Of a stretch of 64,000 nucleotides of DNA, positions 5,179 to 35,052 are shown piece by piece (position 1 is the stretch's first letter; every line of letters starts with the position of its first letter). The position numbers were made by a program, and so were the translations under genes. The stretch is taken from NCBI RefSeq assembly GCF_055900595.2, contig NZ_CM148325.1. One strand, written 5' to 3'. Below the pieces are notes generated by a model. It had not been told where the DNA came from. It did no database searches and saw nothing but the letters and a program-made list of their open reading frames with translations.

Positions 5179-6576
<1,398 letters not shown>

Positions 6577-6619
6577 TTATTCAGTCGATAGTAACCCGCC
6601 CTCCGGGGATAGCAAGCAT

Positions 6620-24920: not shown

Positions 24921-26096
24921 TTACACAGTGGTGGCGATGGATTCAGCCAGATTGACCAGATAGCGGTCAGTGATGCGCTGGCGGAACATCAGGTTTTCCA
25001 GCGGCGGCACCGGGGTGTAGTCGTAGTCGATATACGCTTTACCCGCTTTCAGGATGTCCGGCGTGTTGGCGGCGGGATCGAACCATGCGGAGCCGTCGAC
25101 GATGTAGCCGTTGCCTTTCAGTTCGCGGAATTTGGCGTTCACGCCTTCGATAATGTCGCGGAACAGAGAAGCGTGTTGCGGTTTATCTATCGCCCAGAAG
25201 TGGGCGTCGGCGATGGTATCCGCCAGCACCTGCGCGGTGCGGGTGTAGTTCTCAAAGGCAAACAGCGGATCGGTGCTGCAGGTGCGCGATCCCCAGAAGC
25301 GATAGCCGGCGTTGCAAATCAGCGTGGTGACGTCGTGGCTGTTGAGGTAATCCGAATCGGTGGCGGTGGACTGCAGATCCCAGAATACGCTGCGGGAAAT
25401 GCCGGTCACGCCGTTGACGTCAACGTTGGACAGCGTTTTATGCCAGCCGGTTTCTTCATCAATTTTTGCACGCAGGCCCACGGCGCGGGCGGTGGCGTAT
25501 AGGGTACGTTCGGCGGCAGCCTGTGTATCAAAGCCGACAAAATCCGGCCAGATAATCATCGCCTCTCGCGCACCTAGCTGATCGCGATACAGCACCGCCT
25601 CTTCTTTGGTCTGCGCGCCGAACGCCGACAGATAGCTGAAGGCGCGAAGCTGTTGTGAAATGCTGACCAGTTCGGTGGCGATGGGCAGAGAATCCAGCCC
25701 TGGTACCGCCAGAATGCGCGGTTTTATTTTCAGTTTGGTTTGCGAGTCCAGTAGCGCCTTCATGCCGGTGTATTTCCCGGCTGGCGTGCTGCCGCCGATG
25801 ATATTGGCGGTGGTTTCGGCGGCGGAGTCACCTTCGGCTACGCGCACGGCGACCACCACCGGCTGCGTCTGGTCGGCGATGGCATCCAGAGAGTGTGCCA
25901 GCGTACCGCTATCACCGGCTTTACCCAGCGCAGATCGCACGTCGGTTAACAGTACTGGGGTATCAAGGGGAAAGGTTTTTTCATCGGCATCTGAACCGGT
26001 ACAGACAATGCCGATCACGGCAGTGGAAATGGTACGGATCGGGCGCACGCCTTCATTGATTTCAATAACGCGCGCGCCGTGGTGGTAGTCGGTTGC
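24921..26096 (-). CDS. FI: Tail sheath protein (P2 gpFI-like)
   Basis: Strong similarity to P2 FI as recalled (MATDYHHGARVIEINEG ... YIDYDYTPVPPLENL); start chosen at MATDYHH (ORF track extends to 26186). Confidence 0.85.
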   Translation of the reverse strand, partial: ATDYHHGARVIEINEGVRPIRTISTAVIGIVCTGSDADEKTFPLDTPVLLTDVRSALGKAGDSGTLAHSLDAIADQTQPVVVAVRVAEGDSAAETTANIIGGSTPAGKYTGMKALLDSQTKLKIKPRILAVPGLDSLPIATELVSISQQLRAFSYLSAFGAQTKEEAVLYRDQLGAREAMIIWPDFVGFDTQAAAERTLYATARAVGLRAKIDEETGWHKTLSNVDVNGVTGISRSVFWDLQSTATDSDYLNSHDVTTLICNAGYRFWGSRTCSTDPLFAFENYTRTAQVLADTIADAHFWAIDKPQHASLFRDIIEGVNAKFRELKGNGYIVDGSAWFDPAANTPDILKAGKAYIDYDYTPVPPLENLMFRQRITDRYLVNLAESIATTV

Positions 26097-26204
26097 CATG
26101 AGGCGAGCCTCCATCAGGTCAATAAATGACGATGGTGGCACAGAGCGAAAAGGGCGGTGACGGCTTCCACTTGTAACCACTGGCACTACAAGCAGAAGCG
26201 GTTT

Positions 26205-26963
26205 TTAATTCAGGATAATCAGTTCTGATGTGGTGCTGGCTGGCTTTCCACCTACGGTATAGCGAATCCCTACCGTTGAGAATGTCAGGCCGTGGAAGAT
26301 ATCGCGCATTTCCGGGATGTCGTTAACCGAGATAATCATCCGGCCCTGCATGGTGCGCGCCAGCTCTGCCATACGCTGGTACTGCTCAAGGCCAAATGGT
26401 ACGCCGTAGCCTTCGGTTTTCCAGTATGGTGGGTCGCAGTAGAACAGGGTATGCGGGCGGTCATAGCGGCGAATACAGTCGGCCCAGTCCAGATTTTCAA
26501 TGCAGACGCGCGCCAGCCGCAGATGGGCGGCGGATAAATCCTCTTCCATACGCAGCAGGTTCAGGCGCGGCGGTGAGGTGGTGGCGGTACCGAACGTGCG
26601 ACTTTCCACTTTGCCGCCGAATGCCAGCTTTTGCAGATAGTAGAAGCGCGCCGCGCGCTGGATATCGGTCAGCGTTTCTTCCGGGGTGATCTGGAGCCAG
26701 CGGTACATTTCGCGGCTGACCAGCGACCATTTAAACTGGCGGACAAACTCTTCTAAATGGTGCTGAAGTACGCGGTAGAGGTTGGTAACGTCACCGTTGA
26801 TATCGTTCAGCACCTCGGCCTGTGCGGGCTGTTTCATAAAGAACAACGCTGCCGCCCCGCAGAACGGTTCAACGTAGCAGCGGTGTTTGGGAAACAGTGG
26901 CAGAATGTGTTTTGCCAGCCTGCGCTTACCGCCGATCCACGGAATAACGGGTAACGTATTCAA
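26205..26963 (-). CDS. DNA adenine (N6) methyltransferase, Dam family (copy 2)
   Basis: YVEPFCGAAALFF and FYCDPPYW motifs; sits at the position of the P2 Z/fun accessory locus between tfa/G and FI. Confidence 0.8.
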   Translation of the reverse strand: MNTLPVIPWIGGKRRLAKHILPLFPKHRCYVEPFCGAAALFFMKQPAQAEVLNDINGDVTNLYRVLQHHLEEFVRQFKWSLVSREMYRWLQITPEETLTDIQRAARFYYLQKLAFGGKVESRTFGTATTSPPRLNLLRMEEDLSAAHLRLARVCIENLDWADCIRRYDRPHTLFYCDPPYWKTEGYGVPFGLEQYQRMAELARTMQGRMIISVNDIPEMRDIFHGLTFSTVGIRYTVGGKPASTTSELIILN

Positions 26964-27427
26964 ATTGTCAATTTTCCAGACCGACTGCTGACCAACGCAT
27001 ACAGCAGATTAGGAGACCAGCGCCAACTATCGCGCAGGTGCAGAAATTCGGCGCAGAACTCGCTGCAAAACAGGCGTTCCTGTTTACCCTGACTGAGTAA
27101 CACAAAACCCATGGCGCCCAGCCAGTCGTAACCTTTATCGTCGTGCTGACGAAAAAAGGTTTCCAGTGCCAGCGGATCGGCGTTGATCGGGAGTAAATCC
27201 CATTTCTCAATCGGCAGCGGCATTCGTTTGCTGCGCACGCCTTTATCCCGTACCGATGATGAGTAACAGATAAACAGGCCATCCGGCAGGCGTTCGACCA
27301 GTTCGCAGTGAGAGTAAGGGCCGCGCGTGACCTGTCGCGTCAACCAGTCGGAGAGCCGGGCAAGGCTGAAAAAGCGTTCAGCCCGGCCACGGTAGAACGC
27401 CATGTAAACCTGACTCATGGTTGCCAT
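26960..27427 (-). CDS. Hypothetical protein, possibly permuted-papain/NlpC-P60-like (His-Cys pairs); function unknown
   Basis: 155-aa ORF overlapping the Dam start by 4 nt; motifs SHCELVE and FCSEFCAEFLH; family assignment is only a guess. Confidence 0.35.
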   Translation of the reverse strand: MATMSQVYMAFYRGRAERFFSLARLSDWLTRQVTRGPYSHCELVERLPDGLFICYSSSVRDKGVRSKRMPLPIEKWDLLPINADPLALETFFRQHDDKGYDWLGAMGFVLLSQGKQERLFCSEFCAEFLHLRDSWRWSPNLLYALVSSRSGKLTI

Positions 27428-28122
27428 CCTGATGAGTAGTCGTAACCCATAACCGCCTGCACCTCCGTCAACGCTTCAACGGCGGCAATATGCTGCTGGG
27501 CAGCGGCGAACAGGCGCATATCGTGCGCCATTGTTTCGGTTTCAAACCGGGCGGCGATCTCGTTGGTTAGTTCAATCAGGTTGTGATTTTTGGTCTGCCA
27601 CATTAAGCCTGCCGGTATTTGTTTAGCCACGCCCATTTTGGTGAGCGAGAGCTGCTGGATGCGGCTGTTAGCGTCGCTGTGGAAATGGTGATTATCGATG
27701 ATGATGTAGTCAGCGGTGATTCGATCGCGATACTGCTTTATTTCTGCCACCTTTGCCTGTCGGGCTTTTTCGATATCGGGCTGCCAGCGTTTGCCGTCCC
27801 AACGGACAAAGGCGTTATCGGGCTTCAGCAGAGTGACGTTATCCGGCAATGGCCCCAGATGATGAAGCTGTACCTCACTGCCCGCATCGGTATCAAACGC
27901 GGTTTTACCGCGATGATCTTCTACCGCAAGCCATGTTTCTCCGTTGAATGTCAGGGCAAAGCCGCTCTGGCATTCGGGCGGTTCGATAGTGGTACAGCAT
28001 TCCGGTAAGCCGGTGTTGGGGGCGATATAGGCGTCGCTGACGCCGATAAATTCCTGAGTATCTGCCGCGTAGTTAAAGATGCGCAGGGTTTGCGGTTCGT
28101 CGGAAAATGCGAATGTGCTCAT
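27415..28122 (-). CDS. G: Tail fibre assembly protein (P2 gpG/Tfa-like)
   Basis: 235-aa ORF directly downstream of the tail fibre gene; composition typical of Tfa chaperones. Confidence 0.7.
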
Positions 28123-29780
28123 GCCAGCCTCACGATATAGTTGAAAGCGATATTTTTAACGGTGTTTTCGGTGTTCCCGGCGGCATTCACCGTAATAGTG
28201 TGGCTGTGGGAACCCAAGGCGATAGCGTGGTTATGCGCGCCGATAGTCAGCGAATGGGTATGAGCGCCGATGGCTACTGTGTGAGTATGGACACCGTCTG
28301 TACTGGTTCTGAATTTGTAGTTATCCCAGTCTGTGTCTGCAGACCCCTGATTATTACGGGTACTGTCGAAGTAACCGTGACGTCCACCGCTGGCTTCACC
28401 CCATCCGCTGTCGTGGTTGTGAGCACCGGCTGACGCTGTTGATTTTGTCCCGTAGTCAAACGCGCTGGTATTTTTAGTACCCAAATCGGTGGAACTGGCA
28501 GTTTTAGTGCCTAAATCTGTGTTAGTGGCGCTGGCTGTGTGACTATGAGATTTAACGCCATCCTGTTCCTGAGACAGTATCGAGCGTCCGCTGGCGGGTT
28601 TCCCCTTGATTGTCCAGCCGCGCATATCCGGGATTACCCCAGAGGGGTAAGCGATTGCCAGTTTAGGGTAGGCGGTTTTATTGAAGGACTGACCGACCAT
28701 CAGGGCGTAGCCGCTGGGGATTGCATCGGATGACCACGGTATCGGCGTGCCGACCGGACAGGTTTCCGCCGCCAGCGCTTTGTCTACTGCCGCTTTCACC
28801 GCCTTGGGCGTGGCGGCCAGTGTTTCGCTGGTGCTGTCGATGGCGCTACTAAGCTGGACAATCCCTTTACGCGCCGTGGTGGCATCCTGCGCGGTATATT
28901 TGCCATTAGCCATATCGTAGGCCGCTTTCACCGCCTTGGGCGTGGCGGCCAGTGTTTCGCTGGTGCTGTCGATGGCGCTACTAAGCTGGACAATCCCTTT
29001 ACGCGCCGTGGTGGCATCCTGAGCGGTATATTTGCCATTAGCCATATCGTAGGCCGCTTTCACCGCCTTGGGCGTGGCGGCCAGCGTTTCGCTGATACTG
29101 TCGATGGAGCTACTAAGCTGGACAATCCCTTTACGTGAGGTGGTGGCATCCAGTGCGGTATATTTTCCATTAGCCAGATCGTAGGCTGCTTTCACTGCTT
29201 TGGGCGTGGCGGCCAGTGTTTCGCTGATGCTGTTGGTCGCACTGCTTAATTGAGTAAAACCTTTGGCAGTTAACGTGGCGTCAGGATGGTTACGGGACTG
29301 CACGTGGCACGTCAGGCTTTCATCCACATACTGTCTTGTTGCCAGCACCACGGCAGGGTCGATTTTCAGCTCCACGTTTTCCGTATGGGAGACAATCAGC
29401 ACCATGCGGATAATCTGCGTGCGGCCCGAACCTTCGATTAACTGCGGCTTGTAGGTTGGCGGGCAGTTGCCGACGGCAATCAGCCGGTCGTGCTCGTCGT
29501 ACAGGCCAATTTCTCTGATCCACCATCCGCCTACATCCTCCGGTAGTACCTGTTCGGCAATAATCTGGTTGGGGTTGTTAGGGTCAATACTGAGCGTATT
29601 CAGCGGCGCACGTCGGCGTTCGTTGATTAACCGGGTTTGGCCAGTCTCCGGTGTTGGCAGGTTACCGTTTCCGTCGCCCACGGCCATTTGCGTCAGATGA
29701 AGAGGTGAACCCTGTGCGGTGGCGGTCGCCAGCGCGGATTCGCCGGTAGTGGTTAATAGCGTGAAATAGGTAGCGCTCAT
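28119..29780 (-). CDS. H: Tail fibre protein (P2 gpH-like)
   Basis: Conserved N-terminus [51 protein letters not shown]; variable C-terminal half with 44-aa tandem repeats and His-rich tip. Confidence 0.8.
28780..29290. repeat. About 3.8 tandem copies of a 132-bp (44-aa) repeat within tail fibre gene H
   Basis: atccctttac recurs at 28861, 28993 and 29125; protein repeat [44 protein letters not shown]. Confidence 0.8.
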
Positions 29781-32347: not shown

Positions 32348-32683
32348 TTAACCGTGCGCAGCCTTCATCAGTGTATCGTTAATCCACTGGTTAACGCTTT
32401 TACCGGAGACTTCTGCCGCAACGTTAATGGCAGAGTGAATTTCAGGTGGAATACGCAGGCTGATTTTTCCGCTGGCCGGACGCAACGGCTCCCGGCCCCG
32501 TTCCTCGCAGTAAGCCAGATAGTCGTCTACCGCCTCTTCAAACGCTTTACGCAGATCGGCAACATTATCGGCATGAAAGCCAATGACATCCCGAATGCCT
32601 GCAACGTGACCAACAATGCATTGATCTTCATCGCTGTATTCAATTTTTGCGGCATAGCCTCTATATGTCATGGTATTCATCAT
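32348..32683 (-). CDS. hicB: HicB-family antitoxin
   Basis: N-terminal HicB-like region YRGYAAKIEYSDEDQCIVGHVAGIRDVIGFHADNVADLRKAFEEAVDDYL plus C-terminal ribbon-helix-helix ISLRIPPEIHSAINVAAEVSGKSVNQWI; overlaps hicA by 4 nt. Confidence 0.7.
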   Translation of the reverse strand: MMNTMTYRGYAAKIEYSDEDQCIVGHVAGIRDVIGFHADNVADLRKAFEEAVDDYLAYCEERGREPLRPASGKISLRIPPEIHSAINVAAEVSGKSVNQWINDTLMKAAHG

Positions 32684-32943
32684 GGTGTTACCCCTACAGC
32701 TTCAAGGAATGTTCTGGCATCGCGAACCTGATAGGCTTTCGCTTCTTTTTCCGGGTGTGGACGATGAAATGAAGCCACAACCTGATTAATTTCAAACCTG
32801 ACGCGGGAACCGTTTCCTTCCGTAGCAATAGCCCCCAAAGCAATAAATAAGGCTTCTATTTTTCGCCATTCCAGCGTGACAGGTGTTGGCGTAGAAAAAA
32901 CAGCTTGTAAGGTTTTTTTATGTTTGGCGCTTAACGTATTCAT
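32680..32943 (-). CDS. hicA: HicA-family mRNA interferase toxin
   Basis: GNGSRVRF ... HRPHPEKE pattern resembling the HicA G.H / RHP core; paired with HicB. Confidence 0.6.
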   Translation of the reverse strand: MNTLSAKHKKTLQAVFSTPTPVTLEWRKIEALFIALGAIATEGNGSRVRFEINQVVASFHRPHPEKEAKAYQVRDARTFLEAVGVTP

Positions 32944-34170: not shown

Positions 34171-34465
34171 GTTTCAGTTTCTCCAGTTGCTGATTGCGCT
34201 GCCGTAGCTGGTCATGGGCGGCGGCGGTTTGCTGTTGCAGCGTCAGGTATGCCTGCTGGTCGGCGTCGGCCTGTTGCTGGAGTTCGTCCAGTTCCCGCAC
34301 TTTTGTCATCAGGGATTCGGTCAGGCTGGCAATCTGAGTGTCGGCCAGCCTGATGTGCTGCTGCTGTTCAATAAGCTGTTCCTGCTGCGTCATACGCTGC
34401 CAGTTAGTCCAGAGCAGCATCACACCGAGCAACAGCAGCGGCGCGGCTTTCATCCAGCCCATCAT
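34016..34465 (-). CDS. lysB: LysB/Rz-like inner-membrane spanin
   Basis: N-terminal TM segment AAPLLLLGVMLLW followed by a Gln-rich coiled coil. Confidence 0.6.
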   Translation of the reverse strand: MMGWMKAAPLLLLGVMLLWTNWQRMTQQEQLIEQQQHIRLADTQIASLTESLMTKVRELDELQQQADADQQAYLTLQQQTAAAHDQLRQRNQQLEKLKRENQQLREWADTALPADIIRLHQHTTITGSAAYRQLPETEALPASGAATAE

Positions 34466-35052
34466 GCTGCCGCCTTACTGAATTTTTCGAAGGCGACCGC
34501 CAGCTTAGTATCGTACTGGTTGCGTTTGTACTGTGGCCCGTTGTAGCGGCGGGCGAACTCTGGCCAGTTCTGTACCTTCATCGCGTCGTGGATCTTCGAA
34601 TTGGCCTCAACAAAGCGCACGAAGGTATCAAGCTGCATCTGCTCGCTGTCGTTCATCTGTTTTTCAAAGTCGGCAGCAGAGGTGTAGCCCAGCGTTTTCC
34701 AGTGAAAGCCCATAATCTGGAACAGTCCCCAGCTTGCGCTCTCAATGGCGGCGGCGCTGTGGATCTGTTTCGCCAGATTCAGACGGTAGTGCTCACGGCT
34801 TCCGCCCTGATAGCCGCCTGCGCTCTTGTTCACCAGATCCGGGTAATTCTGCGCCAGCCGGTCGGCGTCCAGTCCGTGGCTTTTTAACTGGCGGTACATG
34901 ACGTGGCGTTCAAACAGAATAGCTGGGCGGCCATCGGGCAAGAAGCCGTGAGATCGGGCTTCAACCTCCTGCACTGCCTGTAATGTCGCCAGCGGGATGC
35001 CCAGATACAGCGCGGCGGCCTGCTGCTGATCATGAGTGAGTGTACGAGTCAT
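34462..35052 (-). CDS. Endolysin (probable N-acetylmuramidase, DUF3380-like)
   Basis: 196-aa ORF in the lysis cassette with ESASWGLFQIMGFHW motif; family assignment from memory. Confidence 0.6.
   Translation of the reverse strand: MTRTLTHDQQQAAALYLGIPLATLQAVQEVEARSHGFLPDGRPAILFERHVMYRQLKSHGLDADRLAQNYPDLVNKSAGGYQGGSREHYRLNLAKQIHSAAAIESASWGLFQIMGFHWKTLGYTSAADFEKQMNDSEQMQLDTFVRFVEANSKIHDAMKVQNWPEFARRYNGPQYKRNQYDTKLAVAFEKFSKAAA

Follow-up and report, generated by a model that had tools for sequence, protein, structure and literature searches.

In the record of bacteriophage P2, the gene fun(Z) is placed between the tail-fibre assembly gene G and the tail sheath gene FI. It codes for a protein of 528 amino acids (aa), lies on the opposite strand and follows the terminator of the V operon. 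Here I describe the equivalent slot of a P2-like prophage in Escherichia coli, contained in a stretch of 64,000 nucleotides (nt) that was analysed as a whole and is called the window below (NCBI RefSeq assembly GCF_055900595.2, contig NZ_CM148325.1); the chromosome beside the prophage is 100% identical to E. coli. The slot is occupied by two open reading frames (ORFs), one of them, here called gene X, a predicted enzyme of the permuted NlpC/P60 group, and the other a Dam-family methylase.

Two other described systems are close to gene X. The solved relatives in the permuted NlpC/P60 group, namely LRAT/PLAAT, LnsA and Tox-Act1, are lipid acyltransferases or phospholipases, and YiiX was crystallised with a fatty acid (PMC7387801, PMC12994826). 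The other system is the tail-fibre module of the Alteromonas myovirus V22, a phage described as strictly lytic, in which the fibre gp26, fused to GFP, and the chaperone gp27 alone bind the host, and of which a functional, chaperone-free fibre was made in E. coli (PMC7289586). The three genes of the window that are central to the present analysis are the following:

27415..28122, minus strand: tail-fibre assembly chaperone in the position of P2 G, 235 aa, with a C-terminal DUF4376 domain (PHROG 1807, PHROG 105, Pfam)
26960..27427, minus strand: gene X, 155 aa, predicted stand-alone Cys/His enzyme of permuted NlpC/P60 (YiiX-like) type
26205..26963, minus strand: orphan Dam-family (D12 class) N6-adenine DNA methyltransferase, 252 aa, with a TTG start and a DPPY motif

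The original prediction for this locus, made from the sequence alone, had seen the slot as the counterpart of Z/fun, occupied by a Dam methylase and a 155-aa protein with a hint of a papain-like fold, and had suggested that the two might form a modification-plus-effector unit. Both ORFs are present as claimed, with a 4-nt overlap (TTGA), and the slot is equivalent to the G-FI position at which the P2 record has fun(Z). As in P2, it lies between a fibre-assembly gene and FI, directly upstream of the pF activator site (in the window a probable one), but in contrast to P2 Fun(Z), X and Dam are encoded on the strand of the late genes and overlap with them. A BLASTP comparison of X with Fun(Z) gave no similarity (E = 6.2), and homology of the two was rejected on this basis; the analogy with fun(Z) is positional only.

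Results

Gene X is consistently paired with the fibre chaperone gene, which is usually of the DUF4376 type. In a survey of 164 X loci (80 species-level genome loci, 80 loci from IMG/VR and four annotated phage records), 153 have an ORF on the same strand, mostly of 155-275 aa, that stops at most about 20 nt away from where X begins, and an iterative profile search relates 143 of these 153 upstream ORFs to the chaperone of the window. Among the 114 upstream genes that were scanned with Pfam, 71 contain DUF4376 and 16 contain Caudo_TAP. Four-nt overlaps make up 82 of the 152 junctions, and 81 of these read ATGA; in three loci X directly follows the fibre gene itself. The order of chaperone and X is the same in the Mu-like SuMu, in Pasteurella Pm86, Moraxella Mcat2 and the Salmonella STM4198 tail island, and again in Pseudomonas pAN, Acidovorax AP1 and V22, so that the pairing spans P2-like, Mu-like and siphoviral phages as well as a lytic marine myovirus. 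The V22 homologue, ORF28, matches PHROG 1128 at 1.3e-19, is aligned by hhalign to the X family with a probability of 96%, matches PF05708 weakly (independent E-value 0.0011) and comes immediately after gp27, a DUF4376 protein whose chaperone role has been proven by experiment (PMC7289586). The link between X and the DUF4376 chaperones, consistent as it is, is not discussed in two papers on the V22/A5 fibre module (PMC7289586, PMC10579305), and it is apparently a modest new element that has gone unremarked. The paper on the virion proteomics of SuMu does not mention gp51, the X homologue of this phage.

The association extends to inheritance. In the enterobacterial group, the identity of X follows that of the C-terminal, DUF4376-containing half of the chaperone (Spearman rho 0.72) and not that of the N-terminal half (rho 0.09), and among 5,426 complete E. 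coli genomes X-like DNA is present in 201 and the chaperone C-half in 209, with one copy each. The enterobacterial chaperones beside X (that of the window and the upstream genes of loci L004-L114) have a common DUF4376 C-half and several unrelated N-halves, which implies that recombination has broken the chaperone gene internally and that X belongs to the conserved side of the breakpoint.

Of the X copies inspected in E. coli and Salmonella, most are found in a tail-gene island with the order D, V, W, J, I, fibre, chaperone, X. The E. coli island (L169 in WWCOL-236 and L170 in A37, near rluF-yjbD) abuts genes for a nucleotidyltransferase and a slipin, and the Salmonella island (L004, the STM4196-4204 region) abuts a hexapeptide acyltransferase gene. 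A Rosetta-stone search for gene fusions returned two proteins with extra segments, P0057 (232 aa) and P0154 (254 aa), and these segments are not chaperone-like. The AFDB entry A0A3S4HXI3 from Salmonella enterica (328 aa), to which the name 'Phage tail fiber assembly' is given, has an X-like domain that spans 123 aligned columns at 50% identity; it may represent a fusion of chaperone and X, or else an artefact caused by a frameshift where the two genes meet in ATGA.

No such association is seen between X and Dam, which are best regarded as two independent passengers in the G-FI cargo slot. Among P2-like loci, X is directly followed by the sheath gene in 12, and a methylase lies between them in three. 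The reverse test, made with the 80 closest relatives of Dam in IMG/VR (66-100% identity), found X upstream in only five, a chaperone without X in 13 and neither in 62; one of the 13, L174, has the order chaperone, Dam, sheath. In the E. coli genomes a Dam of this type is present in 542, and only three genomes have Dam and X together, as neighbours. Therefore, X and Dam assort independently, and the proposed modification-plus-effector unit finds no support in the comparative survey, in which X keeps company with the chaperone (143 of the 164 loci) rather than with Dam. The window is unusual among the carriers of PHROG 1128 genes: it shares with SuMu, Pm86 and V22 the position of X after the fibre chaperone, but a Dam gene directly downstream is rare in the family.

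Searched by itself, X has no match in Pfam (even at E <= 10), NCBIfam, PADLOC or, in a single-sequence search, the PDB. It is a full-length member of PHROG 1128 (E = 1e-53 over residues 1-150), a family that also includes SuMu gp51, Pm86 ORF70, ORF176 of the Ralstonia phage RP12 and V22 ORF28, and that is named 'enoyl-CoA hydratase/carnithine racemase-like' and placed by PHROGs in the category 'moron, auxiliary metabolic gene and host takeover'. An identity as enoyl-CoA hydratase or crotonase was rejected, since X has no match to Pfam ECH and the fold search gives papain-like proteins and no crotonases. The name is a misannotation in PHROG 1128 and in many database entries alike, and the annotation of the family should read permuted NlpC/P60 (YiiX-like) instead.

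The AlphaFold2 (AF2) model of X has a predicted local distance difference test score (pLDDT) of 83 and a predicted template modelling score (pTM) of 0.80. Its structural relatives in the fold search are TseH, an effector of the type VI secretion system (T6SS) (7.5), the Aichivirus 2A protein (7.1), the MARTX RID acyltransferase (6.1) and PLAAT4 (5.9), all of them members or relatives of the circularly permuted NlpC/P60 or papain-like group. An alignment of 33 X homologues contains 17 invariant residues, His40 and Cys121 among them (33 of 33), and the profile of the family finds 3kw0 by sequence (E = 4.4e-4), pairing YSHcE with FSHTG and FCSEF with ICSEF. The order of His before Cys, the alignment with 3kw0 and the papain-like fold identify X, as far as sequence and model can tell, as a permuted NlpC/P60 (YaeF/YiiX-like) enzyme with a predicted His40/Cys121 dyad, and the initial hint of a papain-like fold is thus borne out by both structure prediction and family profile. 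Candidates for the third residue of the triad are the invariant E42, S56, S58 and D61.

The family is very large, unstudied and misnamed. At E <= 1e-3 its profile matches 4,028 representatives of clusters made at 50% identity, so that X is preserved as an intact gene across thousands of lineages, and among the best 150 matches listed of these 4,028 nearly all are stand-alone proteins of 135-190 aa. The genes of the family lie nearly always directly after tail-fibre chaperone genes and overlap with them. The fold neighbours of X in AFDB and BFVD, the latter viral proteins, are all uncharacterised. Compared with YiiX (2if6), with BcPPNE of Bacillus cereus (3kw0) and with PF05708, X has about 15% identity, is phage-borne and is tied to fibre chaperone genes. 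The LRAT/PLAAT (H-RAS-like suppressor) acyltransferases, the picornavirus 2A H-box/NC proteins, LnsA of Staphylococcus aureus, TseH and Tox-Act1 are distant structural relatives only, and unlike the T6SS effectors TseH and Tox-Act1, X has neither a secretion signal (no signal peptide was seen on inspection of the sequence) nor a T6SS context. The alternative that had been named at the outset, that the 155-aa protein is a conserved tail or fibre chaperone component unrelated to the methylase, is largely right with respect to gene order and the constant chaperone companion but finds no support in the protein itself: X has no Pfam match to Caudo_TAP or DUF4376 and a different fold, and is no member of a fibre-chaperone family.

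The Dam methylase was recognised correctly from the start. The 252-aa protein matches Pfam PF02086 (7.1e-29) and, over its full length, the PADLOC model MTase_II (PDLC03253, 1.6e-114), aligns with E. coli Dam (2g1p, 2.7e-14) and shows the motifs EPFCGAAA and CDPPYW in its translation; its TIGR00571 'dam' score of 105.6 bits is below the cutoff of 114.85. By these matches it is a D12-class methylase of the Dam family and an ordinary orphan phage Dam. No nuclease or effector partner lies beside it, as it is flanked by X and the sheath gene. The annotated proteins most similar to it (65-72% identity) come from the BcepMu-like phages PhiKM and KP12 and from B3, VP882 and phiE125; they, too, are orphan methylases, carried by temperate phages of transposable and other kinds in unrelated genomic contexts. 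The Dam of the window resembles those of Pseudomonas phage B3, VP882, Burkholderia phage phiE125 (gp27) and the BcepMu-like phages in its D12-class domain, the DPPY motif and the lack of a nuclease partner, but differs in two respects: it occupies the G-FI slot in a P2-like phage, and it begins inside the 3' end of X, not behind a Com-type regulator. A restriction-modification or defence pair was rejected, as there is no nuclease neighbour, X has no PADLOC match and the two genes assort independently. Dam can be regarded as routine phage cargo.

Discussion

The explanation that I favour, and that I consider reasonably probable, is that the G-FI slot holds two independent passengers, with X as a late acyl- or amide-type enzyme of the fibre and chaperone module and Dam as a separate gene. 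X and Dam would form the distal end of the late V-W-J-I-H-chaperone operon, and X, being translationally coupled to the fibre chaperone, would be made late, together with fibre and chaperone. As a small cytoplasmic enzyme, X most likely forms, by analogy with its solved relatives, an acyl-thioester on Cys121, after which it would either hydrolyse an acyl or amide group or transfer it, with a lipid, a peptide or a lipidated molecule of the envelope as the target. Since the solved relatives are lipid or acyl enzymes, a lipid or lipidated envelope substrate appears most likely by analogy. Dam would be a separate and widely mobile gene whose start has been joined to the end of X by the 4-nt overlap, and which presumably methylates phage DNA late in infection.

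Several observations weigh against this explanation. The Pfam family PF05708 (Peptidase_C92) does not match X at E <= 10, and X is therefore to be seen as a separate family inside the superfamily. The late expression of X is inferred from the gene overlaps alone. An AF2 model of the chaperone C-half, joined to X by a 20-aa linker and based on a paired alignment of 30 sequences, has both domains confident (pLDDT of 87) but a pTM of 0.51; it shows no confident packing of the two parts and lends no support to a fixed complex. In the Ralstonia jumbo phage RP12, X stands by itself, remote from fibre genes; phage A5 seems to have the V22 fibre module but no homologue of ORF28, as gp28 is not in the table of shared proteins (PMC10579305); and X is frameshifted in one E. 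coli island (WWCOL-236). Taken together with the V22 fibre that is functional without ORF28, the cases of A5, RP12 and the frameshift argue that X is an accessory that fibre function can do without, and not an essential chaperone. Finally, an N6-adenine methylase on the same strand is located 3' of X in 61 of 134 informative loci (25 of the Dam type and 36 of the COG3392 type), typically within about 350 nt.

This last observation, the 4-nt overlap in the window and the three P2-like loci with a methylase between X and the sheath gene could all be read as signs of one functional unit, in which the methylase protects against, regulates or cooperates with a papain-like effector. Yet the position is filled by two unrelated methylase families, often behind a small Com-like CxxC ORF as at mom (of the 46 loci in which X and a methylase of either type are at least 150 nt apart, 16 have such an ORF in between), and most of the loci in question are from Pasteurellaceae, Neisseriaceae and Moraxella. 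I argue that the closeness of X and methylases is best explained by a shared position at the end of the late operon combined with the right-end (mom) position of Mu-like genomes. In SuMu (L001), the COG3392-type methylase at 5618-6619 is located at the right end of the Mu-like genome, where Mu has com-mom. With X running straight into the sheath gene in the 12 P2-like loci, with L174 lacking X, with so few Dam relatives preceded by X and so few E. coli genomes carrying both genes, with the nearest annotated Dam relatives in BcepMu-like phages having neither X nor the chaperone nearby, and with X escaping PADLOC, I regard a functional unit of X and Dam as very unlikely.

X could be a fibre-maturation peptidase that processes the fibre, or that releases or cleaves a DUF4376 chaperone 'cap' at the fibre tip, as DUF4376 chaperones have been proposed to be transient fibre caps (PMC10579305); the near-universal adjacency and translational coupling to chaperone genes, preferably those with DUF4376, the inheritance of X with the chaperone C-half, the papain-like Cys/His site and the possible fusion in AFDB would all fit. 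However, gp26 and gp27 suffice for a functional V22 fibre (PMC7289586), A5 seems to manage without X (PMC10579305), the joint model with the chaperone C-half has a pTM of 0.51, X of RP12 is remote from any fibre gene, the nearest solved relatives suggest lipid or acyl chemistry and not proteolysis (PMC7387801, PMC12994826), and the fusion is a single case that could be a frameshift error, so that I consider a peptidase of this kind unlikely. The fun(Z) slot and the PHROGs class of the family suggest instead a host-directed moron effector, similar to Fun(Z) in role and acting in lysogenic conversion, in superinfection exclusion or as a toxin, for instance by modifying envelope lipids or lipopolysaccharide (LPS) to mask a receptor. 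Receptor-modifying genes are often found beside fibre genes, and a hexapeptide acyltransferase gene follows the Salmonella homologue of X. The structural relatives include TseH and lipid-targeting acyltransferases (PMC12994826). But X overlaps a late chaperone gene on the same strand, has the G+C content of its neighbours, no PADLOC match and no visible signal peptide, and no promoter or terminator of its own was found; it is moreover present in the jumbo phage RP12 and in the strictly lytic V22 (PMC7289586), and its presence in V22 and the missing promoter in particular argue against a role in lysogenic conversion like that of Fun(Z). Such an effector seems distinctly improbable to me. As X is apparently late and its relatives act on lipids (PMC7387801), it might also be a helper of lysis or egress, attacking a lipid or lipoprotein link in the envelope after holin and endolysin have acted, and indeed the order in AP1 is chaperone, X, holin, lysozyme, and in pAN a lysis protein is encoded two genes after X. 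I find this extremely unlikely, because lysis genes adjoin X in few loci only: the sheath gene follows in P2-like loci, X is at the right end in Mu-like loci, and the endolysin-like ORF of the window (34462-35052) is several kb away.

If X is a late acyl- or amide-type enzyme of the fibre and chaperone module, as I favour, a further step can be proposed, tentatively. X might be the third component of host-recognition modules that consist of fibre, DUF4376 chaperone and a permuted-papain enzyme, a dedicated late enzyme that acts on the fibre or chaperone (through cap release or acylation) or on a lipid-anchored receptor (LPS or lipooligosaccharide), and that has been kept in P2-like and Mu-like prophages and as far afield as lytic marine myoviruses. 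This would be of interest since fibre and chaperone cassettes are swapped to re-target phages and tailocins, and an enzyme that regularly accompanies them could influence how the fibre matures, the condition of the receptor or the release of progeny.

Further features of the locus

On the minus strand, the gene order is baseplate J/I, tail fibre, chaperone, the 155-aa ORF, the 252-aa ORF, sheath, tube, E and tape measure, which is that of a P2-type tail module. The features that flank the three genes listed above are:

28119..29780, minus strand: tail fibre gene in the position of P2 H, 553 aa (from the ORF list; the homologue in the E. coli L725 prophage is a 'phage tail protein' in RefSeq)
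26170..26192, minus strand: dyad CTTGTA-N11-TACAAG, probable activator site of the late promoter of the F operon (from its position compared with P2 pF)
24921..26099, minus strand: tail sheath gene (FI), with the probable start ATG at 26099 (PHROG 23 tail sheath, 2.8e-131)

By their sequence, X and Dam qualify as genuine genes rather than chance ORFs. The prophage of E. coli L725 is 97% identical, and RefSeq labels its corresponding genes 'phage tail protein', 'DUF4376 domain-containing protein', 'hypothetical protein' and 'DNA adenine methylase'; the whole stretch of fibre, chaperone, X and Dam is found at 97% identity in three of the 5,426 E. coli genomes. The 155-aa ORF of X overlaps the chaperone gene by 13 nt. 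An in-frame ATG at Met4 (27418) would result in a protein of 152 aa and an ATGA overlap with the stop codon of the chaperone gene. This is probably the true start, because it is the one annotated by RefSeq in L725 and because ATGA is the commonest junction in the family (81 of 152 loci). The chaperone matches PHROG 1807 at 6.8e-84 and PHROG 105 (tail fiber assembly) at 1e-43, with DUF4376 at residues 120-224 (Pfam, 1.5e-12) and a weak match to Caudo_TAP; despite its 'G' position, BLAST found no similarity to P2 G. Chaperone, X and Dam have the same G+C content as their neighbours (54-56%), and in a megablast search of the phage collection only the sheath gene of the region found a match, at about 73%.

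The dyad is perfect and directly follows the stop codon of Dam. Its centre is 82 nt before the ATG of the sheath gene at 26099, and in P2 the annotated activator site of pF precedes the FI start by 83 nt, a likeness that makes the dyad a probable activator site for the late promoter of the F operon. The longest sheath ORF (24921-26186) starts with GTG at 26186 and would cross the dyad; ATG 26099, which gives 392 aa as in the L725 annotation, is the more plausible start. Neither a sigma-70-like promoter nor a terminator was found between the chaperone gene, X and Dam, and, unlike in P2, no terminator for the upstream operon was found in the window. The tail fibre gene contains a tandem repeat of 132 nt, corresponding to a unit of 44 aa, at 28789-29233 (3.4 copies, 94% identity), and the fibre protein has HxH repeats at its C-terminus.

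The prophage has a second cargo hotspot at 32348-32943 on the minus strand, between baseplate gene V and a tail-completion gene. Two ORFs of 87 and 111 aa, overlapping by 4 nt, match PHROG 8887 'toxin' (1.7e-32) and PHROG 9151 'HicB-like antitoxin' (8e-48) at this site, and the same slot of the L725 prophage holds an 'abortive phage resistance protein'.

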